Shown piece after piece: positions 1-36,800 of a stretch of DNA of 64,000 nucleotides; within the stretch, counting starts at the first letter, position 1; each line of letters opens with the position of its first letter. A model generated the notes under the pieces. That model saw only the letters and a program-made list of their open reading frames with translations, made no database searches and was not told the origin of the DNA. A program made the translations under genes and the position numbers. The DNA is from Spirochaetia bacterium (lineage in GTDB: Bacteria > Spirochaetota > Spirochaetia > CADAEX01). The stretch is from contig CAXXHA010000001.1 in the NCBI GenBank assembly GCA_963662265.2, positions 32,001-96,000 of the forward strand, written 5' to 3'.

Positions 1-1478
1 ACAGGAGCATCTTTAAGAACTGCCCTTGCAATTGAAATTCTCTGCCTTTCCCCTCCCGAGAGAGTTTTGCCCCCTTCACTGACAACAGTGTCATACCCTT
101 CAGGAAGAGATGAAATAAAATCATGGCAGCATGCAAGCCTGGCTGCTTTTTCAACTTCTTCATCTGTAGCATCTTTCCTGCCGATTTTTATATTGTTTGC
201 AATTGTATCGTTAAAAAGATAAACATCCTGAAATACCATCGATATATCCTTCAGAAGGAGATCAGGATTGATATTTCTGATATCTGTATCGCCAATCTTT
301 ATCCTGCCCCCCTGGATATCCCAGAACCTTGAGATCAAGCTTGTAATTGTTGTTTTACCTGACCCTGACACTCCTACAAGGGCAGTCATTGATTTTTCAG
401 ATGCAGAAAAATTTATACCGTCAAGTACATTTTCGTTTTTATACCTGAAAGACACATCTTCGAATTTAATTTCATGATTATCGGGAGGCATACAGTCTGA
501 GCTGTAATCAGGCTCCTGTGCACTGAATATTTCCTTGATCCTGTCTGTAGAATTGGCGGCATGCCTTAGCAGAACAAGAATAACACCGGCATTTTTTATC
601 GGTTCGAAAAAATAAAACCCGAGTATGGTGAATGTAAAAAGTTCATAAACTGCAATATCTCCAGCCAGAGTATATTTAACAGCATAATAAAGCATTGCAA
701 GATAACCCGCATCAAGAATAAACATGGCTATCTGAACCGGAATACCTGTCCATACTTCTGAAATAAAACTCAGCTTCTTGAGCTTAATCATAGCCCTGTC
801 AAGTTCAGAAAAACTTTTCCCCGTCATGCTGAATGACTTGAGAGGTTTTATTGTACGTGTGTATTCCAGGATTCTTGAAGATGCCCGGTTCACAGCTTCC
901 AGGTGTTTTTTCCCCAGCACCCTGATTATTATTCTTCCTGCAGTGAAAAAGAACAGGGAAACAGCAACTGCTGTAAAAAGGATAACAGAGAGCCTGAGAT
1001 TGATAAAACAGAGAAAAGATCCAAGCAGTACCGGAACAATAACTGCAGAAACAATATCAGGAAGGTTATGCGACAGGATTTCCTCTGCCTTGTTTACATC
1101 ATGAAGCATTCTTGATGTTACATCTCCCGGATCATTGTTTTTAAAAAATCCGAGACTCAGCCTCCTTAGTTTCTCTCCGAGCCTGAGCCTTACATCTGAC
1201 CCTATAGTATAACTCTGAATAAAATTGTTTCGCTGGCTGATTATTGTAAGGACTATGTATATTAAAAACGCCGCCGCATACATGTAGAAATACCTGTATA
1301 AAAGATCATAATCAAAATCCCTCTTTTCAATTACAGGGATGGAAATATTCATGATAATAAGAAACAGGATTCCTGTAAAAGCTCCGCGCGGAATATTTGA
1401 TACAGCGTTTCCCCCTATAAGACCGGCGATTCGCCACTTATAATTTTTGAAAAGCCTGTTTGTTTTTTCGTCTTTCAT
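1..1478 (-). CDS. ABC transporter permease/ATPase, IrtB/YbtQ-like subunit (3' end runs off window)
   Basis: Not in ORF track. Hand translation from ATG 1478 (ATGA overlap with the upstream gene's stop) gives MKDEKTNRLF..., a TM domain, Walker A GVSGSGKTT and signature LSGGERQRISIARA. Confidence 0.9.
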   Translation of the reverse strand, partial: MKDEKTNRLFKNYKWRIAGLIGGNAVSNIPRGAFTGILFLIIMNISIPVIEKRDFDYDLLYRYFYMYAAAFLIYIVLTIISQRNNFIQSYTIGSDVRLRLGEKLRRLSLGFFKNNDPGDVTSRMLHDVNKAEEILSHNLPDIVSAVIVPVLLGSFLCFINLRLSVILFTAVAVSLFFFTAGRIIIRVLGKKHLEAVNRASSRILEYTRTIKPLKSFSMTGKSFSELDRAMIKLKKLSFISEVWTGIPVQIAMFILDAGYLAMLYYAVKYTLAGDIAVYELFTFTILGFYFFEPIKNAGVILVLLRHAANSTDRIKEIFSAQEPDYSSDCMPPDNHEIKFEDVSFRYKNENVLDGINFSASEKSMTALVGVSGSGKTTITSLISRFWDIQGGRIKIGDTDIRNINPDLLLKDISMVFQDVYLFNDTIANNIKIGRKDATDEEVEKAARLACCHDFISSLPEGYDTVVSEGGKTLSGGERQRISIARAVLKDAP

Positions 1479-3256
1479 GCAATGATCTCCTCTTTAACAT
1501 CTTCAAGTTTCCAGTTTTTTGCATCAGTATGGGCCTTCCACATGCCTGAATATATTCCTCCGGAGGAAATAAGCTCATCATGCCTTCCCTGCTGGACAAT
1601 CCTTCCTTTATCAACAACAACTATGTTATCCGCATGAATAATTGTTGAAAGACGGTGCGCGATTACAATTACAGTTCTGTCCCTCATGACATTTGAAAAA
1701 GCATTCTGGATTTTCACCTCATTATCTGCATCCGCGTAACAGCTGGCTTCATCAAGAAGAATTACAGGGGGATTTTTCAGTATTACTCTGGCAATAGATA
1801 TTCTCTGTTTTTCTCCGCCGCTTAAATGAACATCTCCACCCTCTCCAATTACTGTGTCATATCCGTCAGGAAGAGACATTATAAAATCATGGCAGCACGC
1901 AGTTTCAGCTGCTTTTCGGACCTCTTCATCTGTCGCATCAGATCTGTTCATGCATATATTTGCCCTGACTGTATCTGTAAGCATCTGAACATCCTGAAAC
2001 ACAATTCCGACATAATTGTTAAGATTTTCGCTGCCGATTTTTTTGATATTTTTACCGCCTATAAATATTCCGCCATGCTCTGTGTCCCACATCCTTGCAA
2101 TTAGCTGCACAAGTGTGGTTTTTCCCGCGCCGCTCATACCTACAACTGCTGTGAAAGACCCCTGCTCCATCTTGAGATTGATATTTTCAAGAACATTCGG
2201 CCCCCCGTTTTTATAACTGAATGAAAGATCCCTGATTTCAACATCATATTTCTGAGGTATTTCAGCACTTTCAGGTTCAGGTAATTTCTTTTCATCAAGG
2301 ATTTCACCTATCCTGTTTCCGGCGGCAAAAATCAGTTCGCAGTGCCCGGCTATTGTCATGACTTTCACAAACTCCCTGAAACAGCCAGTACCGAGAATCA
2401 GGAACAGGGAAAACGATGCAGCATCTGTCTGCCCTGTTTTAAGAAGATAAATCCCGAGAGGTATTATAAAAAGGCCTCCTCCCAGTGTTATAGCATTAAA
2501 CATGGAGTAAAACGGTGTCTGGGATTTAGACAGCATTACAGTGAAGTCCCTGTATTTTTCAACAGATTTTTTGAGGCGGTTAAATGAATCAACAGTAAGG
2601 TTGAATACCTTGACAACCGGCATCCCCTGAACAAACTCGACTATTGTTGTATGCATGTTTTCGATTGCCTTATGATATGTGTTCCACATTTCAGATCTTT
2701 TTTTACCTCCGGTTGCAATGCCCGAATACATGAGCTTTATCATGAGAAGCCCGAGAGGAAGAGGTATCAGGGTAGCTGTGGCAAGACGCCAGTCAATAAA
2801 AAACAGGACTGTTATAGTAACAACAGGAAGAACAGTGCCTGAGATAACATCGGGAACATGGTGTGCAACAAAATTCTCGATCCTTTCAACATCCTCCTGT
2901 ATGATTTTCCTGATCTTTCCGGAGCTGTTTCCGGACCAGAAACCCACAGGGAGGTGCCCGAGGTGTTCAGTAAGACGGCTTCTTATAATGTAAAGAAGAT
3001 CAAATGCCGCTATATGGCTGAAGACAAATGATGAAACCACAAAAAAATATCTCAATATAACTGCTGACAGGGCAAAAAGCAGCATTTTGATTATTAATCC
3101 TGCTTCAACAGACGAAGCATCTGTCATAAAAACCCGGATTATATAGTAAATAAGAATAAAGGGAACAATTGCAAGTACTGCTCCCAGAGAAGCAAGTACA
3201 GCGCAGAACACAAATTCCTTTTTTTTCTCTTTAATTAAACTGAATATAACATTCAT
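1475..3256 (-). CDS. ABC transporter permease/ATPase, IrtA/YbtP-like subunit
   Basis: SHIAAFDLLYIIR motif, Walker A GMSGAGKTT, LSGGEKQR, degenerate Walker B LDEASC. Start moved to ATG 3256 behind AAGGAG. Confidence 0.9.
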   Translation of the reverse strand: MNVIFSLIKEKKKEFVFCAVLASLGAVLAIVPFILIYYIIRVFMTDASSVEAGLIIKMLLFALSAVILRYFFVVSSFVFSHIAAFDLLYIIRSRLTEHLGHLPVGFWSGNSSGKIRKIIQEDVERIENFVAHHVPDVISGTVLPVVTITVLFFIDWRLATATLIPLPLGLLMIKLMYSGIATGGKKRSEMWNTYHKAIENMHTTIVEFVQGMPVVKVFNLTVDSFNRLKKSVEKYRDFTVMLSKSQTPFYSMFNAITLGGGLFIIPLGIYLLKTGQTDAASFSLFLILGTGCFREFVKVMTIAGHCELIFAAGNRIGEILDEKKLPEPESAEIPQKYDVEIRDLSFSYKNGGPNVLENINLKMEQGSFTAVVGMSGAGKTTLVQLIARMWDTEHGGIFIGGKNIKKIGSENLNNYVGIVFQDVQMLTDTVRANICMNRSDATDEEVRKAAETACCHDFIMSLPDGYDTVIGEGGDVHLSGGEKQRISIARVILKNPPVILLDEASCYADADNEVKIQNAFSNVMRDRTVIVIAHRLSTIIHADNIVVVDKGRIVQQGRHDELISSGGIYSGMWKAHTDAKNWKLEDVKEEIIA

Positions 3257-3272
3257 AAAAACTCCTTTTCTT

Positions 3273-4088
3273 CTAAGATTCAATTCTCAGATGCACCATT
3301 AAGCAAACACCCAGCAGATCAGGAATAGACAGTATGAGTTTAGTCTTGAAACTGAGTCCTTTTTTCATTCCCTTATGCATGGGTTTTGAATCTATGACTT
3401 TTATCCTGTTATCCCATTTTTCAATGGATTCAACATCTTTCAGCCCCCAGCCACCTGAAAAACCGCCCATCCCTCCAGATTCAAGAACTTTCCTGTTTGC
3501 AATTTTCATTCCGAAAGGAGAAAGGGCGTCAAAATATATTTCACAACATCCGAAATAATCTGCTGTAGATATAAAAAATCTTTTTATTTGTTCTTCATTG
3601 AAATAACAGAATACTCCTCCCGAGATAAAGAGCAATCCGTCTGAACTTTTCACCTGTTCAAACCACCGGGTTTCGAGAAAAGAGGACGCAATGCTTATAT
3701 GCTTTTCACTGTCTTTTATAAGCTGTTTCCTGAGTTCAATAACATCAGGGAGATCCAGTTCGTAAAAAGTGATTTTTCCGTTATCTACACGGTTGAAGGT
3801 TGTATCCAGGCCGCAGCCAATATTGACAATTGATCCCTCAGGGTGCTTTTTAATAAAATCGCGAACCTTCTTATCTATATGCAGGCATCGTGCTACCCAT
3901 CCATGCTGCGACATCGACTGTGTATCCTCAATAGCTGAAAAATCGTAATCAAGTTTTTTAATGATTTCCACAGCTTTGTTATCTATCAACCTGGGTTTGT
4001 CTTTTTGAGTTTCAAAAGCTCTTCCCCATAAAGGCAGCAGAAGTGTTTCCTGTATATTGCCTTTTTCAACTTTAATTTTTCCATCCAT
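3273..4088 (-). CDS. Class I SAM-dependent methyltransferase, TcmP/leucine-carboxyl-methyltransferase family
   Basis: QETLLLPLWGRA, VNIGCGLDT and ELDLPDVIELR motifs. Confidence 0.85.
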   Translation of the reverse strand: MDGKIKVEKGNIQETLLLPLWGRAFETQKDKPRLIDNKAVEIIKKLDYDFSAIEDTQSMSQHGWVARCLHIDKKVRDFIKKHPEGSIVNIGCGLDTTFNRVDNGKITFYELDLPDVIELRKQLIKDSEKHISIASSFLETRWFEQVKSSDGLLFISGGVFCYFNEEQIKRFFISTADYFGCCEIYFDALSPFGMKIANRKVLESGGMGGFSGGWGLKDVESIEKWDNRIKVIDSKPMHKGMKKGLSFKTKLILSIPDLLGVCLMVHLRIES

Positions 4089-4201
4089 TATTAATTCCTC
4101 CGATCTTTAATAAATAAAAACATCAGGGTTGTTTTTCATGAATCCAAAGCTGACCTGCAGAAACTCTGCAAGTCAGTCTTTTTCAAAAAACTTTATGTAA
4201 A

Positions 4202-6652
4202 TTATGATCTGCTGCCCGATTCCCGGGGCAGACCTGTTTTATCAGCAGAAGTTTTTCTCCTTCTCTCCTTTAAAACCATTACCGCCGGTGTCACTAAAAG
4301 GTCGGCAGCAAGAGCTGTAAAAATTCCGGCTCCAGTGAGTATTCCGAAATGGATATAAAACTTTGCAACAGACAATGTGTAGACAGAGAAATTCAGGACA
4401 AGGACAATTGAAGTCATGATAAGCGCCGGAGTGACCCTCCGATAAGTCCTTACTATACCCTCCCGGATATTTCCTGTTTTCTGAAATTCAAACTGGGAAT
4501 GATTGATAAAATGAATAGTATCATCTACAGCAAGCCCCATAATCATGGGCATGACTGTGCATGTCATCATATCAAGGGGGATATTAAAAAAGCCCATAAT
4601 TCCCCCGACTACCAGGGCAGGGGAAATATTGGGTATCATCCCGATTAACCCTGTAGTAAAGCTTCCGAAAACAATCATCATCAGGACAGCAATGATTAGA
4701 ATTGAAATAAGAAACGCCTTTATCTGCCCCCAGGAAACCTTATACATCATGTCGGTAAATTTAGGCATTGACCCGTAAAGCACAATATTGGAACCAGGAA
4801 ACATCTCTGATGCGGTTTTCCTTATTTCGTCAAACTCCCTTATCGCCTCGCTGCTGTTGTAATACTTGAGATTGACAGCAACATGGAGCCTTTGATAGTC
4901 GTAATCGACCCATTTCTCAGCCTCCGTCCCCCCGGCATTTTCATAAAGAAGCAGAGCCTGGGCAATCATTTCCCTTGTATCAGGTATTCTGTAATATGCA
5001 CCGTTATTGCTGTTGAGAACTGAATAGATATCCTTGATTACATCAAGAAGAGATGATGTGTTTTTTGTAAGAGGATATTTTTCAATCATCTTGACAAGAG
5101 TGTCAAACTTTTTCAGGTTTTCAGGGTCTTTCGCATCATTAATGCCGGGAAATTCTATCCCCACATCATATGAATATATAGATCCCAGCGAAGAATCCCC
5201 GACATGAAGGTTTCTTTTCACATAGGGAATCCCCTCCCCCATTGAGTCCTTTATATCAAATGAAACTTCAATCATTGTGAGTCCGATTATGCAGAATACG
5301 GAGAAAACCGCATAAAAAGCTGTTATTTTTACCGGATTTTCAGTTGTCCATGTTCCAATCTTTTCCAGCATGCTGCCCCCGTACCGATTTCCGGCTTTTG
5401 CGAGTTTCATCCTGCCGGTTTTTCCGAAACTCAGGAGTGCCGGAAAAAAGAAAACAGAGAGAACATAAGTCACAGCAACCATCAGAGACGATGTCATCCC
5501 GACCCACCTCAAGGTTTTTACCTGTATAAACTGGAATGATGAAAGCGCGGCAATTGTTGTAAGAGCTGTAAACAGGAGAGGCCAGCCTATTTCCTCAATA
5601 GCGGTAACAGCCGCATCTCTCCTGTTGCCTGAAAGAATCAGGTTCTGCCTGAAAAAACTGAAAACATGGATAGAATACCCTATGGAAACAGCAAGCCCCA
5701 GAAAAGCGGGGATCAGTATCATTGAAGGATCAAACTCTGCCTTGAAATACCCCTCTATTCCAAAAGTAATTATCATTGAAGAAACAGCTGTAATAACAGG
5801 AAACAATACACCCCGCAGCGACCTGAGGCTTGCCGCAAGAACAAGAACAGACACAAGGAGGCCCAGCATCATCAGGCGGGGGGTTTCCTGAGAAAAAAAT
5901 TCCCTCTTGTCTGATATCAGCACAGGAAGCCCTGCAGCTGTGCTGTTAAGAATATCATACTTGTCCTGCCTTACTATCCGCTTGAAAATAATTCCCGCAA
6001 TATCTTCAGGATCAAGCGGCTTTGAAACATCTATCCCGGAGTAAAGCTCAGGGTTCCTCTCTGCTTCCCGCACAATATATTCAAAATGATTATTATCCTC
6101 TGTCCAGTTTTCGGGATAATTCAAAAGCCTAAGGACAAGCCAGCTTTCTCTTGAATCAGAAGAGACAAGCTTGTTTCTGATAGCAGGCTTTGAAAGGGCT
6201 TTAACTTTCAGCACTTCAAGCAGTTTCCTGTCTGAAGGTATATCATCAGGTATAAGCTGTCCGACTTCCATCCCCCAGTCAGTTCCTTCAATATATTCAA
6301 GATCTGCTATTGAAATCACATCATCAGCATACGGGACATTTTCCTCAACCTCGCTTCCCAGCTCCCTTATTTTTTCAAGTATATTCTTTTCAAATATCTC
6401 ATCGACTTCAATCAGGGCTGCGCAGTTGGTGTTGTTTCCGAAAATATCCTTGAGCCTGTTTTCAACCTTAATAAGAGGATCATTATCAAGAAACCAGCTG
6501 TCATTAGAATAGTTTGCTTTTAATCCTTTCATTCCGGGAAATGAAACTGCGACAAGAAGAATAAAAGTCAAAAGGAACAGGATTCTTTTTTTTATTACAA
6601 GCAATCCCAGGCTGCGGAATTTAATGTTAATTCTTTCTATATTTATTCCCAT
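4202..6652 (-). CDS. MMPL/RND family transporter
   Basis: 816 aa, two repeats of a periplasmic domain + TM bundle; GLAVSIGYSIH and GLAVDDTIHF motifs. Confidence 0.85.
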   Translation of the reverse strand: MGINIERINIKFRSLGLLVIKKRILFLLTFILLVAVSFPGMKGLKANYSNDSWFLDNDPLIKVENRLKDIFGNNTNCAALIEVDEIFEKNILEKIRELGSEVEENVPYADDVISIADLEYIEGTDWGMEVGQLIPDDIPSDRKLLEVLKVKALSKPAIRNKLVSSDSRESWLVLRLLNYPENWTEDNNHFEYIVREAERNPELYSGIDVSKPLDPEDIAGIIFKRIVRQDKYDILNSTAAGLPVLISDKREFFSQETPRLMMLGLLVSVLVLAASLRSLRGVLFPVITAVSSMIITFGIEGYFKAEFDPSMILIPAFLGLAVSIGYSIHVFSFFRQNLILSGNRRDAAVTAIEEIGWPLLFTALTTIAALSSFQFIQVKTLRWVGMTSSLMVAVTYVLSVFFFPALLSFGKTGRMKLAKAGNRYGGSMLEKIGTWTTENPVKITAFYAVFSVFCIIGLTMIEVSFDIKDSMGEGIPYVKRNLHVGDSSLGSIYSYDVGIEFPGINDAKDPENLKKFDTLVKMIEKYPLTKNTSSLLDVIKDIYSVLNSNNGAYYRIPDTREMIAQALLLYENAGGTEAEKWVDYDYQRLHVAVNLKYYNSSEAIREFDEIRKTASEMFPGSNIVLYGSMPKFTDMMYKVSWGQIKAFLISILIIAVLMMIVFGSFTTGLIGMIPNISPALVVGGIMGFFNIPLDMMTCTVMPMIMGLAVDDTIHFINHSQFEFQKTGNIREGIVRTYRRVTPALIMTSIVLVLNFSVYTLSVAKFYIHFGILTGAGIFTALAADLLVTPAVMVLKERRRKTSADKTGLPRESGSRS

Positions 6653-6662
6653 AATACTTTAC

Positions 6663-7433
6663 CTATCTGATTCTTCCCTTCTTGATGGAAGCAACTGTAA
6701 AAAGGCTGTCTTTAACAGGACTGTTGTACCTGATATCTGAAAATTCCATAACAGTTTTATGTTTTTCCTGGATATTCTCCATGACCATTTCCCCGGCTGT
6801 CCAGATACCGTCAATCTGCTCTATCCTTCCGCATGAAAGGACTTTCAAAAGACCGACCCTGTTGTAATATTCAACATGAACAACCATGAAATTATCCCTG
6901 CGGACCCACACCTTCTTGTATGTGTATTCCCCCTTTTCAACTGGAACAGACTTGATTACCCAGCAGTCGCGTCCTTCATAAACATCTTCACTCTCAAGAG
7001 TATGGTTATCTTCATCAACATTACGGTCTCCCATATCATCATAGGTAAAGTCAGTTCCCATGAAATAATCATTGCTGCTTTTCCCGCTGATTCTTCTTTC
7101 CTTCCTGAGGGCCGGCATATAAAGCCACTTATCATCCTCTTTTGAAACATCATCGTATTCCCAGCTCAGGAAACATGTCCCCTTTACATCTTCAGGTTTT
7201 GTAAAATACATGACTTTCTTCGAATCTTTTCCATAATCCTTGCTGTAGGAAATAACATTTCGAACCCTCCTGCTTCCCCTTTTATTGACAAGAGTCATTG
7301 TCATTGAAGAATTACGGGTATCCCCGTCATCTCTTTCATCAACCTGAACCATAATATCTCTGCCTGACAGAGCACCTGCGTAAAAAGAAGCAAACACAGA
7401 TACTGCAGCTATCAGAATAATCCGCTTAAACAT
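6663..7433 (-). CDS. Outer-membrane lipoprotein-sorting (LolA-like, DUF1329-type) protein
   Basis: Signal peptide; WLYMPALRKERRI and FMGTDFTYDD motifs; typical partner of MMPL. Start ATG 7433 after GGAGG. Confidence 0.8.
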   Translation of the reverse strand: MFKRIILIAAVSVFASFYAGALSGRDIMVQVDERDDGDTRNSSMTMTLVNKRGSRRVRNVISYSKDYGKDSKKVMYFTKPEDVKGTCFLSWEYDDVSKEDDKWLYMPALRKERRISGKSSNDYFMGTDFTYDDMGDRNVDEDNHTLESEDVYEGRDCWVIKSVPVEKGEYTYKKVWVRRDNFMVVHVEYYNRVGLLKVLSCGRIEQIDGIWTAGEMVMENIQEKHKTVMEFSDIRYNSPVKDSLFTVASIKKGRIR

Positions 7434-7450: not shown

Positions 7451-7467
7451 AACGAACACAGTTCGTT
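7451..7467. promoter_or_regulatory. Putative TetR operator AACGAAC-N3-GTTCGTT
   Basis: Perfect 7-bp inverted repeat between tetR and the LolA-like gene; near copy at 33528-33544. Confidence 0.6.
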
Positions 7468-7486: not shown

Positions 7487-8104
7487 TCAGACAAGCACCT
7501 TATATTTAAAAAGACCTTTCCATCCCCTGTAAGAAAAAGTCATTACTTTCCTGGCTGAATCAACAAACTCATCTCCCTCTGTGCCATGCATCAGGGCCTC
7601 CCTGAAAAACTGTATCCATATTCCGGAAATATTATGCAGAACAAAGCGATCGACACTGATTTCATCAACATTAAAATGAGCTGACATCCACGGTAAAAAA
7701 CCTGCTGTCATATCTGTATACCATTCAGTAATACCATCTATATAATCTTCATATACAGATCCTGCAGAATTAAAAAACAGAAGCTTGAAAATGTTCCTGT
7801 TTTTTTCGACATATTCTATTACAGATGTTATCATTTTCAGATGATCATCAAGATCAGATATCTCTTTAGCAGCCCTGGGACTTTCAAGAAAACTCTTTCC
7901 CTTCTCAATATCAGAAAGAACAGGATTAAGTACAGCCTCAAAGAGTTCATCTTTGCTCCGGAAATAATTATACATGTTCGCAGCTGACACACCGGCCCTT
8001 TTTGCTATTCCCCGGATAGAAGTATGCATATAACCTTTCAGGCAAAACTCATCTTCAGCAGTCTTTAATATAAGATTTTTCACCAGTGTTTTTTTCCTCT
8101 GCAT
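7487..8104 (-). CDS. TetR/AcrR family transcriptional regulator (TetR-1)
   Basis: HTH TSIRGIAKRAGVSAANMYNYFRSKDELF. Start ATG 8104 after GGTGGAG. Confidence 0.9.
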   Translation of the reverse strand: MQRKKTLVKNLILKTAEDEFCLKGYMHTSIRGIAKRAGVSAANMYNYFRSKDELFEAVLNPVLSDIEKGKSFLESPRAAKEISDLDDHLKMITSVIEYVEKNRNIFKLLFFNSAGSVYEDYIDGITEWYTDMTAGFLPWMSAHFNVDEISVDRFVLHNISGIWIQFFREALMHGTEGDEFVDSARKVMTFSYRGWKGLFKYKVLV

Positions 8105-8105
8105 A

Positions 8106-8140
8106 CTCCACCCATCTAACTTAATTAGCACTATCTAATT
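8106..8140. promoter_or_regulatory. DtxR/MntR-type metal box upstream of TetR-1 operon
   Basis: AATTAG-CACTAT-CTAATT (8123-8140) plus a CTAA half-site 19 bp away (8116); -35-like TTGGCA at 8161-8166 (minus). Confidence 0.7.
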
Positions 8141-8267
8141 TTATCACCATAATCCAATTATGCCAAGACTGAACAGTGTTTTTTTTAACATTTCATTTCT
8201 TCCGTTTTTTTATGTTGCATGTTTCGACAGTTAACAACCTTGAAAGAAAAATTGAGATACAATAATA

Positions 8268-10123: not shown

Positions 10124-10160
10124 AATTAGATATATCTTATCTTTTTAGATAATTCTAACT
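10124..10160. promoter_or_regulatory. Tandem DtxR-type boxes upstream of exbBD-tonB
   Basis: TTAG-ATATAT-CTTA (10126) and TTAG-ATAATT-CTAA (10145), 19 bp apart; TTGACA (minus) at 10172-10177. Confidence 0.75.
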
Positions 10161-21025: not shown

Positions 21026-21529
21026 TCATAACCTGGCCACTATTCCTTTAAACACGTCAGCTGCCCTGTCAAGGTCTTCTTCATCGGGATGAGTTTCAGC
21101 ATCTTTCCACCTTTTTCTTCTTGCCTCATCAGGGGCATGAGGATGGTCCGGGGGGAGTTTTTCCATCCACTCAGTCAGCGCCGGATCTATCCGCCCCTGG
21201 CAGATAAAATCTCCGAGTACAGTATTTCCTTCAAGGATATTTTTACCTGCATTGATGCATTCAAGGGCATGTATTGAATCCGGATATGCCCCAAGCGTTG
21301 CAAAAATTGCGACTTTTTTTTCTGCGATCTTCTTCATATATTCAAGCGATTTGCTGTCAGGGCCGCCCTTGTCCACCCAGTATCCGAATGCTATAAAATC
21401 ATAACTTTCCGGATCAGGAGCTGTTTTAACACTGTATATCTCACATCTTTCCGGCATGACTTTATAAACAGCCTCTGCAACTTTTTTTGTATTGCCGGTC
21501 TTGCTTGAATAGACCACCATTGTTTTCAT
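21026..21529 (-). CDS. Flavodoxin-family protein (HmuF/FldH-like, heme-operon type)
   Basis: YSSKTGNTKKVA, GYWVDKG, FATLGAYPDS.HA, His-containing cap PPDHPHAP...THPD. Confidence 0.8.
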   Translation of the reverse strand: MKTMVVYSSKTGNTKKVAEAVYKVMPERCEIYSVKTAPDPESYDFIAFGYWVDKGGPDSKSLEYMKKIAEKKVAIFATLGAYPDSIHALECINAGKNILEGNTVLGDFICQGRIDPALTEWMEKLPPDHPHAPDEARRKRWKDAETHPDEEDLDRAADVFKGIVARL

Positions 21530-23696: not shown

Positions 23697-24250
23697 AACC
23701 GTATTATCCCCGCATGTTTAAGTTCTTTTGAAAAATACATACCGGTAAATATTCCTGCAATGCATCCTGTATATCCGATAGAAACAGTTATCACTGCAAA
23801 ATAGAGAAGGTTTATATTTTCCCTCATGAAGAGAAAACCGAGTCCCAGAGATGCTATTCTGTACGCAGTCTCATAGAACCCGAGTCCGATAAGAACTGCT
23901 GCAGTATTACGGTACCCCCCCAGAAGAACAATCAGCCAGTCACCGATAAGACCTGCAAGAAGAGCCATCGGGGCAATCATCATCCCCCGCCCCATCATAA
24001 CCATCGTCATTATTGAATTGATAAGAACATACAGGGAAAGAACCCCGTATTTTCTTACCCTGTATAAAAGAATAACAAGCAGGGACGTGGCAATAAGATT
24101 TTTCAGAATCATTGCCACAGGATTCATACCTCCCCCGGTTATTGAGACAAGGAAGCTGGAAATCCGTATCAGAGCGGCAAATATCCCGATCGATACAATC
24201 TCCCAGCTTTCCCAGTATTTTTTCTTTTTAATCATCTGTTTCTTTTCCAT
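23693..24250 (-). CDS. MptD/Trep_Strep-family ECF S component
   Basis: Hydrophobic 185 aa protein, IGIFAAL start, ELKHAGI end, adjacent to T and A components. Confidence 0.75.
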   Translation of the reverse strand: MEKKQMIKKKKYWESWEIVSIGIFAALIRISSFLVSITGGGMNPVAMILKNLIATSLLVILLYRVRKYGVLSLYVLINSIMTMVMMGRGMMIAPMALLAGLIGDWLIVLLGGYRNTAAVLIGLGFYETAYRIASLGLGFLFMRENINLLYFAVITVSIGYTGCIAGIFTGMYFSKELKHAGIIRL

Positions 24251-29907: not shown

Positions 29908-31637
29908 CTTTCATCCTCCCTTATCTGCCAGTTGTCAACAAGATCCTGCTGCTCAACCATTTCCCTGTACAATAAAGACACATCCATAAGCTCATCATGC
30001 TTCCCTGAAGCAGAAATCCTTCCTTCATCCATGACAACAATCTGATCCGCATCAATGACAGTGTTAAGGTTATGAGCAATCATAATAACGGTTTTTTCAC
30101 GGCCCAGGTTTTCAATTGCCTTCTGTATAAGGTATTCATTAGCCGGATCTATCGCGGAAGTCGCCTCATCAAGAATAATAATCGGTGAATTTTTAAGAAT
30201 CATTCTTGCAATGGAAATACGCTGCTTTTCTCCGCCTGAAAGCCTTGCGCCCAGTTCCCCTGTCAATGTCTTATACCCTTCAGGAAGGTCTGTAATGAAA
30301 TCATGAATCCCAGCTTTTTTTGCTGCCTCTTCAACCTCTTCAAGTGTCGCATCCTGCCGCCCTATTCTTATATTCTCTTCAATTGACTGATTAAAAAGAA
30401 CAACATCCTGCTGCACTATTGAGAGAAGCTCTGAAAGGGCTTTTTCAGAAATTTGGGCTATGTCCCGGTTTCCTATACTTACAGAACCGCTGTCAGGCAG
30501 CCAGAATCCCATAATAAGCTGTGCCAGTGTTGTTTTCCCTGATCCTGATTTGCCGACTATCGCGTTTACACTTTTTTCCCTGAAAACAAGATCAATATTA
30601 TCGAGTATTTTTTTCTTTCCCGGATAACTGAAGTTTAAATTCCTTATTTCAATATCACCAGGCGCCGCCTCGTTGAAATATTCAGTTTTCCCGGGACATT
30701 CAACACAGAGAATGGAATTTATATTTTCTTTTGACTGGTTGAAAACAATACCAAAATGCTGAAATGTGGCAAGCCTTGCAAATGATGATGAAAAAAAACC
30801 ACCGAGTATCAATGAAAGAACAAACTGCTGAATATTAACATCCCCGCGTGTATAAAGCAGAGAACCTGCTATAATCATAAACACAAGACCGGCATCAAGC
30901 ATAAGCGAAATAACCCCAAGCGGGACTGATATGCTGCCCAGCACCTTTTTTACCCAGCTGATATAATCATTCATTCCCCCGAGAAGATTTTCAGTCTTGT
31001 TTTCTTCTCTACTGAAAGCCTTTATCACAGGTATTGTAGCAATATATTCAACCATATCCTCAGACATTTTTTTTGTACTTTCAGAGAATTTCCTGAAACT
31101 TTTTCCCCATAATTTATTCAAAATAGACCTGGAGAAAAACAGAAGCGGCACAGTTGAAAAAAGCGACACTGCAAGCCTCCAGTCAATAAAGAAAATAACA
31201 ACAAGAATTACCGCAGGGACAAATACTGTTGATACAATCTCCGGCAGGGCATGCGCGAGATAAAGCTCAACCTGCTCAACATCATGACTGATAATTTTTA
31301 TAAGATCCCCGGTTTTACGGCTCTGATAAAAACTGAGAGGCAGTTTTTTCAAATGCTCTGTAATATCAATGCGTATATCAGACAACACCTTATATGCTGA
31401 ATCATGGGCTTTCCATATTGAAAGTCCGTAAAACAGGGATTTTAAAACCAGGCATGTGAGTATGCCGGAACTGTAGATTAACAAGTGTTTCAATCCAAAT
31501 ACTCCCGCTGCCAGATCTCCGATCATCAGTACAACAAGTACAAAAGGGACAATTCCCAGAACAACACTGAAAAGAGACAAAACAGAAGATGTCATGCTTT
31601 TTGATTTAATATCCAGACCGGAATCACAGCTCTTCAT
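29904..31637 (-). CDS. ABC transporter permease/ATPase, IrtA/YbtP-like (second pair)
   Basis: AHDSAYKVLSDIR, GKSGSGKTT, LSGGEKQR. Confidence 0.9.
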   Translation of the reverse strand: MKSCDSGLDIKSKSMTSSVLSLFSVVLGIVPFVLVVLMIGDLAAGVFGLKHLLIYSSGILTCLVLKSLFYGLSIWKAHDSAYKVLSDIRIDITEHLKKLPLSFYQSRKTGDLIKIISHDVEQVELYLAHALPEIVSTVFVPAVILVVIFFIDWRLAVSLFSTVPLLFFSRSILNKLWGKSFRKFSESTKKMSEDMVEYIATIPVIKAFSREENKTENLLGGMNDYISWVKKVLGSISVPLGVISLMLDAGLVFMIIAGSLLYTRGDVNIQQFVLSLILGGFFSSSFARLATFQHFGIVFNQSKENINSILCVECPGKTEYFNEAAPGDIEIRNLNFSYPGKKKILDNIDLVFREKSVNAIVGKSGSGKTTLAQLIMGFWLPDSGSVSIGNRDIAQISEKALSELLSIVQQDVVLFNQSIEENIRIGRQDATLEEVEEAAKKAGIHDFITDLPEGYKTLTGELGARLSGGEKQRISIARMILKNSPIIILDEATSAIDPANEYLIQKAIENLGREKTVIMIAHNLNTVIDADQIVVMDEGRISASGKHDELMDVSLLYREMVEQQDLVDNWQIREDER

Positions 31638-31683
31638 CCCCTACCCCCTTTCTTTCATGAATTATCATATAAACCTCCTTAAT

Positions 31684-31735
31684 TACTGAACAACAATTCA
31701 ATTTTTGCTCGTTATTATTGAATAAGCGTTCAATA
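31684..31735. promoter_or_regulatory. Putative TetR-2 operators upstream of the ABC pair
   Basis: TATTGAAT-AAGC-GTTCAATA (31716-31735) and weaker TACTGAAC-AACA-ATTCAATT (31684-31703). Confidence 0.65.
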
Positions 31736-31757
31736 TTGATATAAAAAATTTTGCTGT

Positions 31758-32326
31758 TTACAAACCGGCAGTCCCGTACAGATGCTGCTTTATCAGGAGC
31801 CTGAACATCATCCCTGCCCATTCCGGGTCAACATAATGGCGGGCTATCTCAAAAACCCCCTCCATAAAGTTAGTTGCAAGTATGTGATAAAATATTCTGT
31901 CAAAAACTGCTGTCTTTAAGCACAGGTGTTTTTTTAAGATGCCTTGTAACATCATCAATAAGATCATCCTTGAATCCCGAGTACAGACTCCCGGAACTCC
32001 TGTCGACCAGTATTACAATTTCCAGGTGATACCTTGATATGCATTTAATAAATTTGGGGTAATTCGTATTCAAAAAGGTTTTCTTCCGGAATATCTGACA
32101 CAGGCTCTGATTCTATTATTGACTTCAAACCGGAATATGCGGGATAAACAACCTTCGAAAACAGGTCTTCCTTGTTTTTGAAGTAGGAATATATAAGTCC
32201 TGTAGGGATTCCGGATTTCTCTGCAATATTTTTCATTGTTGTAAATTTATATCCATTTGAATAAAACATATCGCGGGCAGCATCTTTAATCCTGTTGTAT
32301 ATTTCTTCCTTCAGTACCTGTGCCAA
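31758..32326 (-). CDS. TetR/AcrR regulator (TetR-2), interrupted by two +1 frameshifts
   Basis: MAQVLKEE...HTH. Removing one base at 32056-32059 and one at 31902-31906 gives a continuous ORF (...IVILVDRSSGSLYSGFKDDL...DSSFDRIFYHILATNFMEG...). Confidence 0.8.
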
Positions 32327-32343
32327 ATTGCAACCTTCTTCAA

Positions 32344-32363
32344 TATTGAATTCTCATTCAATA
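32344..32363. promoter_or_regulatory. Putative TetR-2 autoregulatory operator
   Basis: Perfect arms TATTGAAT-TCTC-ATTCAATA just upstream of the start. Confidence 0.7.
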
Positions 32364-32594
32364 TAAAACTATTAAATACAATCGTCAATCACTTTATAAT
32401 CACCGATTCAGCAGGCAGATGTCAAACTGCCTGCCTGGGGAACTGTCTGTGCCTTGTAAAGATAAAAAAGCAAAAGGCTACAGCTTCTGTAAGGCGTTAT
32501 CCCGGCCGCAGACCACACAACCCTGATCCCCAAAATAAGCACAGAATATCAGATCCGACCTGCAAATATTCCATGAAAATAATTTTATATCCTT

Positions 32595-33484
32595 TTAATA
32601 TGTTGCTGTAACATTTTCATCAACCGCAACTATGTAATCAGCTCTTCCAATATATTGCTCTTCCAGCTTCCCCACTTCTGCCTGAAGAACAGTTGTAAGA
32701 GTCTTTATACCTGCCCCTGGAATCTGTTTATTAATATACCAGATAATTGATTCATGATTATCTGAATGATAAGAACCGTTAAAGTGGATGAACAATTCCC
32801 CTTCTCTGCAGTTATTCAACACAATTATATGCCATAGAAGCATCCTTGACTGCCTGAGCCTCGGCAAGATGTAGTTTTTTTTCAGATCCAATCATGTTTT
32901 TCAGCTTCATTCCCATCGAAGACCCTGATATGTTTTTATAGCAGGGAAGATCACTGTCAAAAAGAACAGGCAGGGGTGGAATATATTTCTTTGCTTCATC
33001 GCTTAGAGACTCAAGAGAATCAAGCCCCCTGTAGTTCACAAATGATGCATAACGCCTCGGAATATTTGTTGCAATAAAACGAATCCCATTTTCACGGGCA
33101 AAGGTGACTATCGGTTTATAATCCGTTGAATAATTCGGCCAGAGCCTCATATTATCCTCAAACCGCTTTTCATCAATTATTCCGGCAAGATACTCATCAA
33201 GAATAAGCTGATTATCTGTCTCAAAGAATTCTGCCCCGAGAACAATGTCTTTTTTAATCCTGTAAAGGTCTTCTGATATTTCAAGTTCAAGCCAGTGGGA
33301 AACAGAATTATTGTGCAATTCCCCAAAAAAGAAATAATCACAATTGGCAATACCATCAATCATTTCAGAATATTTAATCCTTTTTCCCTCAATATCATAA
33401 AAGGCATTATAATTCTTTTGCATTGGCAGCAAAAGGACAAACTGCAGACATACAAAAAACTGATATAAACAACCTGAAAAACAC
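32595..33484 (-). CDS. ChaN/PhuW-family heme-binding exported protein, two +1 frameshifts
   Basis: FFGELHNN, GAEFFE, ATNIPR, AQAVKDASMA, NGSYHSD. GTG 33484 with RBS and signal peptide rejoins after removing single bases at 33416-33419 and 32823-32824. Confidence 0.8.
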
Positions 33485-33517
33485 TCTTCCCCCCTTATCT
33501 ATTTGACTATCTGTCAC

Positions 33518-33586
33518 TTGACAAATTAACGAACAATGTTCATTATTCATATATATAAGTTTATTAGTTATATCTAATCATGTCAA
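33518..33586. promoter_or_regulatory. Face-to-face/overlapping promoters of chaN and MATE with a TetR-1-like operator and a DtxR-type box
   Basis: TTGACA (+) 33518, AACGAAC-AAT-GTTCATT 33528-33544, TATTAG-TTATAT-CTAATC 33562-33579, TTGACA (-) 33581-33586. Confidence 0.7.
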
Positions 33587-33628
33587 TGCAACGACAGTAT
33601 AAGTTAACTATTTATAAAGCAGGTAAAT

Positions 33629-35018
33629 ATGAAAGATATGAGAAAAGATCTTCTTGAAGAAAGCATGGGGAAACTGTTCATAAAAATGGCAATCCCGGGA
33701 ATGGCAGGTATGAATAGTCATTGGACTCTACAACCTTGTAGACAGCATCTTTGTAGGGCAATTCATAGGTCCGGAGGCTGTTTCCGCGGTTACAATGGGG
33801 TATGCGGTAATCCTTGTAAACCAGGCAATCCTGAGTCTTTTTGCAACAGGAGCAACATCTGTATTTTCAAGAGCACTCGGGGCAAATGACAGAAATACAA
33901 TGAACAAGGTATTTGGAAATGTCTTCTGGCCTGTGTCATTTCTCTCACTAATCCTTACATTTTTCACATATTATTTTGCAGAGGAAATACTGCTTCTTCT
34001 GGGAGCTGAAGGGAAAATACTTGTTCTGGGAATTGAATATATGAAAATACTGTCACTTGGTTTCATATTTGGAGCACTTGGACCTGCGCTGAATTTCCTT
34101 ATCAGGGGAGAAGGAAAGATGGGCAGTGCCATGAAAATAATCGCTGCAGGGACAATTATCAACATAGCGCTTGATCCTGTATTTATCATCGTCTTTGGGA
34201 TGGGAATCAAAGGAGCCGCTGTAGCAACAATTATAGGGCAGGCTCTTATAGTTGCAGGTGACTTTATCCATTTCTTTTCAAAGAACAGCTCTATCAGTAT
34301 TTCTCCGAAAAGTTTCAGATTATCATTTGACATAATGCCGGAAATAATAAAAATCGGCATATCAGGAATGTTTATGTCTATCGCTGTTGCTGTTCAGCTG
34401 TCAATACTGCTCTCTCTGAGTTCTGTTTACAGCATTTCAAGCAATATAGTTATGAGCGTAGCTTTCAGAGTCATGAGTTTCTTTTATATTCCTATTTTCG
34501 GTATTTCATACGGGCTGCAGCCTGTAATAGGAGCCAACTACGGGGCAGGATTATATGAAAGAGTGAGAAAATCATTCTTCTTTTTCTTAAAAATATCTTC
34601 TGTTATTTCAGGTGCTCTGTGGCTCTTTTTCCAGCTTTGCGCCCCTTTCATTCTTTCATGCTTTATAACAGATACTGAAATTGTAGCAAAGGGAATTGTT
34701 CTTTTCAGAATATTCATGTCCAGTTTTATTCTTTATGGTTTTATTGCATTGGCAATAATGCTCTTTATGGCTATTGGAAATGCCGGCAAGGGAGCACTGC
34801 TGACAATGGGGAGACAGATATTTTGCTTCATTCCTCTGGCATTCATACTCCCCAGACTGATGGGAGAAAAAGGGGTATGGCTTTCCTATCCTCTTGGAGA
34901 TTTACTTGTAACAGTGTTCGGACTTATAATTGTTTCAACAGAATTAAAGATGCTTAAAAAAATACAATTACAAAAATCAACATCCCCCGCTGCAAGAAAC
35001 AGGGATGTTGATCTGTAA
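33629..35018 (+). CDS. MATE family efflux transporter (MepA-like), +1 frameshift near 33713
   Basis: MAIPGMAGM|IVIGLYNLVDSIFVG restored by removing one A; NIALDPVFI, GIKGAAVAT, QPVIGANYGA. Confidence 0.85.
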
Positions 35019-35203
35019 GGTATTGTTTGTATGACAGTATTAGTACACTTCGGACACAATGTACTATCAAAGCCATACAGTAAAATATAAAAACAGGCAG
35101 CGTGCGGGAGTAATGGCCGCATTGTAAGCGGCTCCCCCGGAAAAGTTAAGACAAGAAGTTAAAACCTTATTAAACACGCCCTGCGAATAAAGGAGACTGA
35201 ATA

Positions 35204-36217
35204 ATGTTTTTGCCTGAACTTTCAATTGATTTTAAGAAACTATACGATCTTCAATACGGAGGGATTAAAGCATGGCTTCTCATGAATGCAGTTGAATTAA
35301 ATATTTTCAACCAGACAGAAAGCTATAATTGTACGGAAAATATAGCTGAAAAACTTAATCTTCATAAAGGCAATACAGAACTGTTTTTAAATGCGCTCTG
35401 TTCTTTAAAGCTGCTGAGAAAAAAAGACAACTGCTTCATAAACACAGAACTGTCAAGCACCTTTCTTGTTGAAGGAAAAGAAACCTATATAGGTGCTTTT
35501 CTTATTATGAATAACGAATGGATACTTCAAAGCAAACAGCAGATGAAGGATTTTCTGATAAAAGGTCCCGGCTCAGGATATAATGAAACTACTTTCTCCG
35601 ATGAAAGTTTTAAAAAACATACCAGAGCTATGAGAGACTTTTCCCGTTCCGGGCCATCTCAAACAGTTTCAGAAATAATAAGCAGACTCCCTGAATTTCC
35701 AAACATGAAAAAAATGCTCGACCTTGGAGGAGCTCATGGAATTGACAGTATTGCAACTGTTCTTAAAAATCCCGGGATAAAAAGCACTGTATTTGACAAG
35801 CCCCCTATTGCAAGAACAACTGAAGAAATAATCCGGGACTACGGAATGGAAAAAAAGATAGATGTGATGGCAGGAGACTATACGACTGATTCAATCGGGA
35901 ATAATTATGATCTTGTTTATGCACGGGCGACATTCAACTTCATAAAAGACAACCTTAATCCTGTATTTAAAAAAATATACTGCGCGCTGAACAAAGGGGG
36001 AGTATTTATATCTCTTCATGACGGTTTTTCTGAAAATAAAACGGCACCGGAAGATATGGTTATCAGCTGGTTCTCTTCTTCAATATCAACATATGATTTT
36101 TCAATGCCGCAGGATCTGGTAGCAGATAAAATGCTTGAAACCGGTTTTAGAAATGTCCATACAAAAACGCTGTCTCTTTCAATAGGGACCATGGACCTTG
36201 TTATTGCAAGAAAATAA
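35204..36217 (+). CDS. SAM-dependent O-methyltransferase (dimerisation + Methyltransf_2 domain)
   Basis: AVELNIF N-terminal domain, LDLGGAHG, FDKP, AGDY. Confidence 0.85.
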   Translation: MFLPELSIDFKKLYDLQYGGIKAWLLMNAVELNIFNQTESYNCTENIAEKLNLHKGNTELFLNALCSLKLLRKKDNCFINTELSSTFLVEGKETYIGAFLIMNNEWILQSKQQMKDFLIKGPGSGYNETTFSDESFKKHTRAMRDFSRSGPSQTVSEIISRLPEFPNMKKMLDLGGAHGIDSIATVLKNPGIKSTVFDKPPIARTTEEIIRDYGMEKKIDVMAGDYTTDSIGNNYDLVYARATFNFIKDNLNPVFKKIYCALNKGGVFISLHDGFSENKTAPEDMVISWFSSSISTYDFSMPQDLVADKMLETGFRNVHTKTLSLSIGTMDLVIARK

Positions 36218-36275
36218 TTTTTTTCAACAAAAGAATAAAACCTGATTGTTCAGTTATTTCATTACAGCTAAACTT

Positions 36276-36318
36276 AAACTGCCTGGCATAATATTTTTCT
36301 TAAACCAGGCAGTTTTTT
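36276..36318 (+). terminator. Intrinsic terminator after O-methyltransferase
   Basis: AAACTGCCTGG...CCAGGCAGTTTTTT. Confidence 0.7.
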
Positions 36319-36452
36319 ATCTTTCAGCTCCCTCCCTGTATTTTATTTACAGGAGACTGTTTTCAGCTTATAAACATTACACTTAAAAAGTTTATAAAAA
36401 TCTCAAACACCCGCTGTTGCGGATTTTAACTTAGATTCCCGCCCATACAGAC

Positions 36453-36800
36453 TTATTTGATTATGCTGTTCACAATTAAAGGGGCAGCTTTTACTCCCGC
36501 GATAACAAACAAAGCGATAATAAATGTCTCAAATCCGGCCTTCACATTTATACCGCCCATTATTACCGCGGCACACAGATCTGTCAGAACACAGACTGCC
36601 AAAGCGCCGGCAATTCCAAGTTTACCAAAAACCATTACCATCAGCATTAGAATAGGAATGGAACATAATGTCCCTGTTAAAACAATCATAAGTACAGATG
36701 AATTTGTGTTTTTAGATATAAGAGGAAGCATTCCGGCCATTCTGGGACAAACAACAAAAAAACCAAATGAAAGGCTTGCAAGAAGCAGTTCTTTTGCCAT
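36453..36800 (-). CDS. Small integral membrane protein, unknown function
   Basis: AGGAG RBS, ~4 TM segments, VCPRMAGM motif. Confidence 0.7.
   Translation of the reverse strand: MAKELLLASLSFGFFVVCPRMAGMLPLISKNTNSSVLMIVLTGTLCSIPILMLMVMVFGKLGIAGALAVCVLTDLCAAVIMGGINVKAGFETFIIALFVIAGVKAAPLIVNSIIK

Follow-up and report, generated by a model that had tools for sequence, protein, structure and literature searches.

A spirochaete MATE efflux transporter gene and its neighbouring O-methyltransferase (OMT) gene raise the question of which regulator controls them, as their promoter holds a palindrome resembling one beside a distant tetR gene, tetR-1. The original prediction, made from the 64 000-nucleotide stretch of DNA analysed here (the window), had placed both genes in the circuit of TetR-1, with additional control by iron.

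The MATE-OMT gene pair

The MATE gene (33629..35018, plus strand) appears in the window as two frames, 33629-33889 and 33795-35018, and its product matches Pfam MatE in two stretches (4e-28) and an NCBIfam matE subfamily above cut-off. The second gene (35204..36217, plus strand) encodes a COMT-like small-molecule OMT of the class I SAM type, with matches above cut-offs to Methyltransf_2 (PF00891, 1.4e-10, 41.3 bits) and to the N-terminal O-methyltransferase dimerisation domain (6.4e-08, 32.8 bits). A gap of 185 bp, containing a weak promoter-like match, separates the two genes. Downstream lies a hairpin followed by T6 (36279..36318, plus strand; ViennaRNA −17.5 kcal/mol for a 51-nt stretch), which is absent from the consensus-scan terminator list and is the likely terminator of the pair. 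We infer that MATE is co-transcribed with OMT. As predicted, these are the only real plus-strand genes of the island, which holds between position 1 and about 55,000.

The split frames of MATE, chaN and tetR-2 are assembly insertions, and the annotation is hereby corrected: the three apparently broken genes are intact in independent data. Contigs of X1 and X4 lack one of the window's bases at 33713 in MATE, where frame arithmetic fits a single reading frame, and likewise at 33407 and 32814 in chaN and at 32056 and 31902 in tetR-2. An intact 450-amino-acid MATE homologue on a metagenome contig (locus L041) reveals the position of the frame break and the intact MATE N-terminus.

A rare palindrome in the predicted MATE promoter

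The candidate operator upstream of MATE (33528..33544, assigned to no strand) is the 17-bp sequence AACGAACAATGTTCATT. Its counterpart, the perfect palindrome AACGAACACAGTTCGTT (7451..7467), lies between the tetR-1 stop codon and a LolA-like gene and has a 7-3-7 form, AACGAAC-N3-GTTCGTT. The two sites are identical at 13 of 14 arm positions, the sole difference being A for G at 33542. Both sequences, and the position of the first just after the MATE TTGACA, read as the original prediction had described them. The MATE copy is also identical in contigs from two runs of different studies, both of which span the whole region.

A window-only scan with the degenerate pattern of the original prediction was discarded as evidence; it is circular, because the pattern came from the two sites themselves. 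The genome-wide scan that had been proposed as a check was more informative. Scanning the 3.77-Mb genome with the perfect palindrome returned one site without mismatch, two with one mismatch, none with two and 35 with three. The three sites within two mismatches are spread over only 39 kb of a single contig, and a reversed-pattern control in the same genome gave one site at up to one mismatch. We then scored the genome with a weight matrix trained on 12 tetR-linked sites from seven genomes, from which the MATE site was excluded. The MATE site ranked first (26.3 bits), followed by matches of 24.0, 22.0 and 16.6 bits, while the maxima in ten order-3 Markov simulated genomes were 14.5-21.5 bits. 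The MATE site is the sole independent match, since the tetR-linked sites are training data. Among nine lower-ranked matches (12.6-16.6 bits), seven were inside open reading frames and none was beside an exporter gene or a tetR gene.

Could the site be a chance near-palindrome in an AT-rich promoter? An independent-base estimate expects about 0.6 one-mismatch sites per genome, and one of the ten simulated genomes reached 21.5 bits. The score of 26.3 bits, however, exceeds all ten simulations, and the genome has no two-mismatch sites. The site moreover sits on a predicted promoter, no more than 39 kb from either of the tetR genes described below, and its central AAT is the centre preferred by the operator family. 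We therefore consider chance highly improbable. As the best copy in the genome lies in the MATE-OMT promoter, the cassette is very probably wired into the TetR circuit.

The palindrome accompanies a subfamily of tetR genes

The tetR-1 gene (7487..8104, minus strand; Pfam TetR_N 3.7e-15) has a paralogue, tetR-0, located 5.5 kb to the left of the window and thus beyond the view of the original prediction. The two proteins are 42% identical (E 1e-64) and have similar recognition helices, with VS..N.YNYF common to both and to their orthologues. Compared with solved structures, TetR-1 gave HTH-level matches only, with MtrR, NalD and DarR nearest by sequence. TetR-0 and TetR-1 are two paralogues of an uncharacterised spirochaete TetR subfamily. 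The motif strings had no match in the literature searched, nor did anything relevant on TetR/HAE3/operator appear there.

Downstream of tetR-1, Pfam and NCBIfam assign a run of minus-strand genes (3..7433): the LolA-like gene (6663-7433; LolA_like/DUF1329), an MMPL/HAE3-type RND gene (4202-6652; Pfam MMPL, with an NCBIfam HAE3 score of 173.6, below the cut-off of 351.9), an LCM-family methyltransferase gene (3273-4088) and two ABC exporter genes (1475-3283 and 3-1478). Pfam matches to DUF1302, LolA_like/DUF1329 and MMPL were above cut-offs. In the relatives G002 and G009, the DUF1302, LolA/DUF1329-like and MMPL/HAE3 genes form one block; here they are divided between the two tetR paralogues.

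The other two strong sites of this genome lie 16-20 nt 3' of the tetR-0 and tetR-1 stops; the MATE site is 26 kb from one of these genes and 39 kb from the other. The close relatives G001, G002 and G009 have a perfect palindrome 20-30 nt after the TetR-1-type gene; that of G001 is unchanged from 7451-7467 at the orthologous place. G001 also has a copy with one mismatch after tetR-0, and G002 and G009 have an additional copy ahead of the MMPL gene. Among eight loci of distant TetR homologues (27-35% identity) from 401 genomes of the phylum, three have five sites within two mismatches adjoining tetR, and the remaining five have no site within two mismatches. The tetR-linked sites of this genome (two of its three strong sites) and of six others all lie at most about 60 bp from a tetR gene encoding a TetR_N HTH.

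Most sites are intergenic, and on the plus strand the consensus scan flags 7451-7467 as resembling a terminator, so that the palindromes might instead work at the RNA level, as hairpins or terminators between tetR and the gene that follows, and not as protein-binding DNA. But the genes at 7451-7467 are on the minus strand, with no T-run after the stem there, and the MATE copy lies upstream of the predicted MATE start. Across seven genomes (G000, G001, G002, G009, G073, G395 and G221) the arm sequence is conserved without compensatory changes, while the loops vary. We find the hairpin explanation scarcely credible.

The original prediction had also noted a weaker copy by the tetR-1 promoter. 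Such a sequence, ACTGAACAGTGTTTTTT, is present at 8168..8184, just upstream of the tetR-1 −35. Its score is at the genome-wide background: it has four arm mismatches and 10.8-10.9 bits (rank 21), and 34 real sites exceed 10 bits, compared with 28-37 in the simulated genomes. Even so, the corresponding position of G001 shows the identical sequence between flanks that differ. A similarly weak match overlaps the −10 of the second paralogue, tetR-0, in this genome and in G001.

The candidate operator and two predicted opposing promoters

A consensus scan predicts a sigma-70-type MATE promoter, TTGACA-17-CATTAT (33518..33546, plus strand; 10 of 12 matches). Its TTGACA occupies 33518-33523, and the operator begins 4 nt later, takes up the spacer and runs into the predicted −10. 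A hexamer starting with TTG is found exactly 4 nt upstream in six of 14 oriented sites, the MATE site among them, and 3 nt upstream in two more. The MATE-OMT promoter would thus share the layout of the tetR-linked sites, with a TTG-type −35, 4 nt and the operator running into the −10, although the −10 hexamers at tetR-linked sites (CGTTAT, CTTTAT) are poor consensus matches. At the LolA-like and MMPL genes the operator ends 6-8 nt ahead of the ribosome-binding site, which would leave almost no leader if the promoter overlaps it. Roadblock instead of promoter occlusion may therefore operate there.

On the other side of the control region lies chaN (32595..33484, minus strand; GTG start at 33484), split into three frames in the window. 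It encodes a haem-binding protein of the ChaN/Tiki family (Pfam Cofac_haem_bdg 6e-46), whose N-terminus matches the ChaN of G001. Its predicted leftward promoter, TTGACA-17-TAAACT (33558..33586, minus strand; 10 of 12 matches), would place the operator at about +8 to +24 of the chaN transcript.

This arrangement leaves room for a reading in which TetR-0/1 bind the site, but the target is chaN or nothing, the palindrome being a by-product of the junction and MATE-OMT being driven from elsewhere or silent. Both promoters are consensus predictions, the operator also lies within the predicted chaN leader, and chaN lost its former operon promoter through the insertion described below. The −35, 4 nt, operator layout, however, agrees with that of the tetR-linked sites when read rightward, towards MATE, and the second base of the MATE −10 (CATTAT), an A, stems from the single arm change. 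We regard this reading as unlikely. Our preferred interpretation, which rests on sequence comparison, is that 33528-33544 is probably a functional operator through which the resident TetR-0/TetR-1 govern the inserted MATE-OMT genes.

A neighbouring TetR has its own box

Regulation by a local repressor is the usual case, and a third regulator gene of a different TetR subfamily, tetR-2 (31758..32326, minus strand; Pfam TetR_N), lies only 1.2 kb from MATE-OMT. In G002 and G009 a tetR-2 orthologue immediately precedes a MATE gene (30-31% identity to the MATE here) beside an O-methyltransferase gene. TetR-2 might thus regulate MATE-OMT in place of TetR-0/1. Against this, tetR-2 is flanked by a box of its own, TTGAA-N6-TTCAA (31718-31733 and 32346-32361); these are the only two copies in the window, with none in 33433-33628. 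The same box is found between tetR-2 and MATE in G002 and G009. The recognition helix of TetR-2 (IPTGLIYSYF) is also unlike that of TetR-0/1. Control by TetR-2 therefore seems very unlikely. As a separate observation, two TetR subfamilies in the region of the window have a strong operator placed after the tetR gene.

A likely metal box in the shared control region

A metal box had been predicted in the region shared with the opposing chaN promoter, and we find ATTAG-N6-CTAAT there (33563..33578, no strand), between the −35 and −10 of the predicted chaN promoter. The 3.77-Mb genome has five exact copies of this sequence, and all fall inside the window, at promoters of iron-uptake genes, of chaN/MATE and of tetR-1. 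The genes with the box at their promoter encode Feo, a TonB-dependent receptor, ExbB/D-TonB, flavodoxin and ChaN. The tetR-1 copy (8124..8139) lies on the promoter TTGGCA-17-TAAAAT (8166-8138), and the box upstream of tetR is kept in relatives, exactly in G001 and with one mismatch in G002. In an earlier screen of island intergenic regions for shared 12-mers, AT-rich noise was mostly what appeared before the ATTAG box surfaced.

In its full form the box reads ATTAGAT-N2-ATCTAAT (7-2-7). Like the Fur/PerR/Zur 7-1-7 and DtxR/IdeR boxes, it is a palindrome repeated at iron-gene promoters; it differs from Fur-type boxes in sequence and spacing. Neither the classical Fur 19-mer GATAATGATAATCATTATC (up to five mismatches) nor the 7-1-7 motif (up to three) is found in 33433-33628. 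Association alone links the metal box to iron genes, and it is distinct from a classical Fur box. Both Fur-family and DtxR-family proteins are encoded in the genome.

The gene pair is inserted and its wiring appears local

Comparison with G001 and G002 shows that both promoters, both boxes, MATE and OMT lie on a lineage-specific inserted segment (33489..36447, plus strand). Homology to G001 chaN stops at 33488 and picks up at 36448 after 19 bp. The 2.96-kb insertion, opposite in orientation, parts chaN from its upstream neighbour and from its former operon promoter, and is absent at this locus in both congeners compared. Non-coding parts of the cassette, searched by BLAST against the genome, gave no repeats and no mobile-element ends.

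A class search returned 11 MATE loci, six of them 66-69% identical, and none has a site within three mismatches. In five of the genomes with these MATE orthologues, we found neither a site within one mismatch nor a TetR-1 homologue at E ≤ 1e-15. Because the genomes with the closest MATE orthologues lack both the operator and this TetR, the operator appears not to have arrived with the MATE gene, and the wiring probably arose locally. The contigs of species-representative genomes, searched for close MATE relatives, gave at best a 31% match. A scan of metagenome contigs yielded a single locus, L041, whose MATE shares about 70% identity and belongs to a tetR-ABC-ABC-MATE operon. We rejected L041 as an operator-bearing relative: it has no site within three mismatches, and its TetR is just 24-27% identical to TetR-0/1. 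Conservation cannot serve as a check on regulon membership, since the MATE site is missing from G001, the closest relative in which both TetRs occur.

Discussion

All the comparative evidence gathered here supports membership of MATE-OMT in a TetR circuit, and this part of the original prediction stands. Its attribution to TetR-1 needs amending: two paralogues share the operator, so the regulator may be either or both of TetR-0 and TetR-1. As ancestral targets, the pair would have had a hydrophobe exporter resembling AmeABCD, along with a methyltransferase and ABC exporters. In the ligand-free state, a TetR dimer on the spacer and −10 would block MATE-OMT transcription. It would probably block chaN too, because the predicted chaN start is a few bases away and the operator falls within the first part of the transcript. 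A hydrophobic ligand would dislodge the repressor, and ATTAG-N6-CTAAT would add control by a metal-responsive regulator. Severed from its former operon, chaN is probably under the same two boxes. We infer binding, repression, the ligand class and the iron response from these arrangements.

TetR repressor/efflux pump pairs are well known, and ligand-released repression is their expected mode. Like TetR-tetO, QacR-IR1, AcrR, MtrR and NalD, the system described here is predicted to combine a TetR_N HTH regulator with a 15-17-bp inverted repeat overlapping an exporter promoter. It differs from them in several respects. TetR-0/1 resemble the named regulators in the HTH only, with a best E of 1e-6, and they reach none of the NCBIfam models. 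The strong operators of TetR-0/1 follow the tetR gene instead of lying in a divergent tetR-pump promoter. Finally, one operator serves two paralogues here, and one target lies 26-39 kb off, on a later insertion.

The proposed ancestral targets resemble AmeABCD of Castellaniella defragrans, which comprises a DUF1302 outer-membrane protein, a DUF1329/LolA-like protein, AmeC and an HAE3 RND pump and acts in monoterpene efflux (PMC6394551). DUF1302, LolA_like/DUF1329 and MMPL/HAE3-type components recur here, but the HAE3 NCBIfam score is below cut-off and the setting is a spirochaete iron-uptake island.

A bolder reading can be built on the control region of about 100 bp, in which fully overlapping opposite promoters share a TetR operator and an iron-island box. 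ChaN and the pump-plus-methyltransferase pair would be co-switched by a hydrophobic ligand and iron status. With the tetR genes under the iron box, the TetR-0/1 circuit would be an iron-starvation sub-routine, perhaps for a methylated metallophore or a haem-breakdown product and not for xenobiotics, and the operator after tetR would act as roadblock control inside the operon. We consider this extended scheme doubtful.

On the interpretation that we prefer, in which the resident TetR-0/TetR-1 control MATE-OMT, this is an ordinary kind of regulation in a neat case. Repression of an efflux pump by a TetR protein follows textbook logic and would therefore not surprise a specialist. Comparative genomics alone defines the operator and a small regulon of an uncharacterised spirochaete TetR subfamily, together with what is likely the box of an iron regulon in an uncultured lineage. 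The locus would further illustrate, cleanly and in nature, how a freshly inserted gene pair can bear the operator of regulators that the host already had.

A rare, probable operator marks the predicted MATE-OMT promoter

The plus-strand gene pair encoding a MATE efflux pump and an O-methyltransferase (MATE-OMT; 33629-35018 and 35204-36217) had been predicted to share the operator of TetR-1 (minus strand, 7487-8104). We found the three proposed sites at 33528-33544, 7451-7467 and 8168-8184. The MATE site, AACGAACAATGTTCATT, starts 4 nt past a TTGACA (33518-33523) and is unlike the tetR-1-linked site at 7451-7467 (AACGAACACAGTTCGTT, a perfect 7-3-7 palindrome) at 1 of 14 arm positions, while 8168-8184 has four arm mismatches to the operator palindrome AACGAAC-N3-GTTCGTT. 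Because a window scan with the degenerate pattern of the original prediction is circular, we replaced it with a perfect-palindrome scan of the whole 3.77 Mb assembly. It returned one exact site, two sites that differ at a single arm position, no two-mismatch sites and 35 sites with three mismatches; the MATE site is thus among only three genomic sites with at most one mismatch. All three lie within 39 kb on contig C1, of which the window covers 32001-96000. This clustering, and the jump from one mismatch straight to three, argue against a chance origin. The third site (C1:26504-26520) is 5.5 kb left of the window and 16 nt past the stop of tetR-0. The tetR-0 product aligns with TetR-1 over 200 residues at 42% identity (E = 1e-64), and the next gene encodes a DUF1302 outer-membrane protein. 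In the same way, 7451-7467 separates the stop of tetR-1 (7487) from a LolA-like gene that starts at 7433; further downstream are genes for an MMPL/HAE3-type pump, an LCM-family methyltransferase and two ABC exporters.

In a weight matrix built from 12 tetR-linked sites, excluding the MATE site, the latter ranked first genome-wide with 26.3 bits, ahead of the two resident tetR-linked sites (24.0 and 22.0 bits) and the fourth-ranked site (16.6 bits); maxima in ten simulated genomes (order-3 Markov) were 14.5-21.5 bits. Sites above 10 bits were not in excess (34 in the real genome versus 28-37 simulated), and two of them are located at the tetR promoters: 8168-8184, directly upstream of the tetR-1 -35, and C1:25841-25857, on the -10 of the predicted tetR-0 promoter TTGACA-17-TACACT. 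The score of 8168-8184, the proposed weaker operator copy, is therefore at simulated background, but both weak sites are conserved in G001, a relative of the same genus, despite diverging flanks. This conservation suggests that 8168-8184 is probably a real autoregulatory site. A distant TetR homolog (L054, genome G318) has a perfect palindrome, AAAGTAC-AGT-GTACTTT (1483-1499), just 5' of its start; its arms carry GTAC, a variant that recurs in the weak tetR-0 promoter sites. We found no close characterised or solved relative of TetR-1.

The operator is linked to tetR in related genomes

Of 41 related genomes, 4 (this one counted) encode TetR-1 homologs at E<=1e-20. In G001 (TetR-1 92% identical), the tetR-1 ortholog has a perfect palindrome behind it and the tetR-0 ortholog a one-mismatch copy. 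The relatives G002 and G009 have one tetR, then a perfect palindrome, LolA-like, DUF1302, a second copy and MMPL, followed by a TonB-dependent receptor, two ABC exporters, four methyltransferases, a 115-aa protein, a TetR-2 ortholog and MATE. These tetR-to-MATE genes form one conserved block (G009, L042 1770-19324; G002, L043), in which the 115-aa protein is a membrane protein and no core biosynthetic enzyme is evident; this genome and G001 have a split block and a duplicated tetR. Phylum-wide, 9 of 401 sampled genomes encode TetR-1 homologs at E<=1e-25. Among eight foreign homolog loci (27-35% identity), three carry five sites with at most two mismatches beside tetR, and five carry none. The operator arms are conserved in sequence and show no compensatory changes; AAT/ATT is the preferred centre. 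The recognition helix reads VS..N.YNYF in TetR-0, TetR-1 and their orthologs but IPTGLIYSYF in TetR-2. The operator core with other flanks, CGAAC-ATT-GTTCG, lies between DHDPS-family and FGGY kinase genes here (C39:10192-10208; L073 about 1692) and in the same context in G009 (L044:4074 and 8232), and may point to an independent conserved regulon or to an additional weak target.

TetR-2 (minus strand, 31758-32326), of another TetR subfamily, is the local rival candidate for the control of MATE-OMT. However, TetR-2 has its own box, TTGAA-N6-TTCAA, which occurs between tetR-2 and MATE in G002 and G009 (L042 about 17870-17900) but is confined to 31718-31733 and 32346-32361 in the window and absent from 33433-33628. 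This box, too, lies past the tetR-2 stop codon and ahead of the following gene (ABC exporters in the window, MATE in G002/G009); operator placement after tetR thus recurs in two TetR subfamilies.

MATE-OMT lies on an inserted segment

In G001, homology on the side of chaN (minus-strand haem-binding ChaN/Tiki family gene, 32595-33484) ends at 33488 and picks up at 36448 past 19 bp, and G002 likewise lacks 33489-36447. The best matches in G001, G002 and G009 reach 31% identity for MATE and 25-26% for OMT. The G001 operon runs DUF2023/DUF2325 protein, flavodoxin, 115-aa protein and, last, chaN, indicating that the insertion separated chaN from its former promoter. MATE matches at E<=1e-60 were present in 28 of 401 class genomes, this one counted, among them six of other families with orthologs at 66-69% identity; the best OMT relatives (48-49%) occur in two of the MATE-ortholog genomes, about 35 kb from MATE. 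None of 11 MATE loci examined had an operator site with three or fewer mismatches. Five of these genomes had two-mismatch sites at best (6-11 each versus 5-22 for a reversed control) and no TetR-1 homolog at E<=1e-15. This argues that the operator did not come along with the MATE gene and is native to the host circuit.

The genes tetR-2, chaN and MATE are split by single extra assembly bases and are not truly broken. Contigs from two independent sequencing runs, X1 (depth 15) and X4 (from a different study, with 25 base differences across 4.9 kb), each cover 31600-36500 in one piece and have one base fewer at 31902, 32056, 32814, 33407, 33620 and 33713. Frame arithmetic agrees with this, and the expected read-through is seen in an intact MATE homolog (L041) and G001 chaN. 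Operator and metal box are unchanged in both contigs.

Promoter layout and a candidate iron box

When sites were oriented to the downstream gene, 6 of 14, MATE counted, had a TTG-starting hexamer exactly 4 nt before the operator, and two more had TTGAAC 3 nt before it. A consensus scan predicted TTGACA-17-CATTAT for MATE (10/12 matches), where the one arm change of the site provides the A at -10 position 2, and a leftward TTGACA-17-TAAACT (33586-33558) for chaN, both being consensus matches only. Transcription of chaN would then begin some 2 nt from the predicted MATE start, which would place the operator between about +8 and +24. Before the LolA-like and MMPL genes, 6-8 nt separate the end of the operator from the ribosome-binding site; since an operator-overlapping promoter would leave almost no leader there, roadblock control of tetR read-through is an alternative at these two sites.

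The metal box predicted beside the MATE operator, ATTAG-N6-CTAAT, is indeed present as an exact copy at 33563, between chaN and MATE. All five exact copies in the genome fall inside the window, the others at 8124 (on the tetR-1 promoter), 19753 (5' of a TonB-dependent receptor gene), 46163 (5' of FeoB) and 48313 (5' of a periplasmic binding-protein gene). Copies with one mismatch map to 10125, 39168, 39809, 39828 and 52672, among them the promoter of the flavodoxin operon and further promoters of the island; that at 10125 is intergenic, just 5' of an ExbD/TonB gene block, and adjoins a downstream ORF without a Pfam match. The number of exact copies does not exceed our own independent-base estimate; what stands out is their confinement to promoters and to 1.7% of the genome. 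The box also precedes tetR in G001 (exact) and G002 (one mismatch). It is unlike classical Fur boxes, whose motifs had no match in the chaN/MATE control region, and the genome encodes Fur-family and DtxR-family proteins. We propose it as a candidate box for the iron regulon of this spirochaete lineage, the iron link coming from its association with iron-uptake genes. A radical SAM protein that carries a PCP_red domain at its N-terminus (24232-25776) and a Flavodoxin_3 protein (21026-21529) are encoded amid the ECF/ABC transporter and TonB-dependent receptor genes of the island.

A putative efflux and modification circuit

Computationally, the shared palindrome is confirmed, and its rarity, tetR linkage and top matrix rank support placing MATE-OMT in the TetR-1 circuit, with the amendment that the tetR-0 paralog is marked by the palindrome as well. 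The nearest characterised counterpart of the ancestral TetR-0/1 targets (DUF1302, LolA-like, MMPL/HAE3-type) is AmeABCD of Castellaniella defragrans, in which a DUF1302 protein, a DUF1329/LolA-like protein and an HAE3 pump export monoterpenes (PMC6394551). By this analogy, the circuit, which lies within the iron island, likely responds to hydrophobes by efflux and modification, and would have been newly extended by MATE-OMT and probably also chaN.
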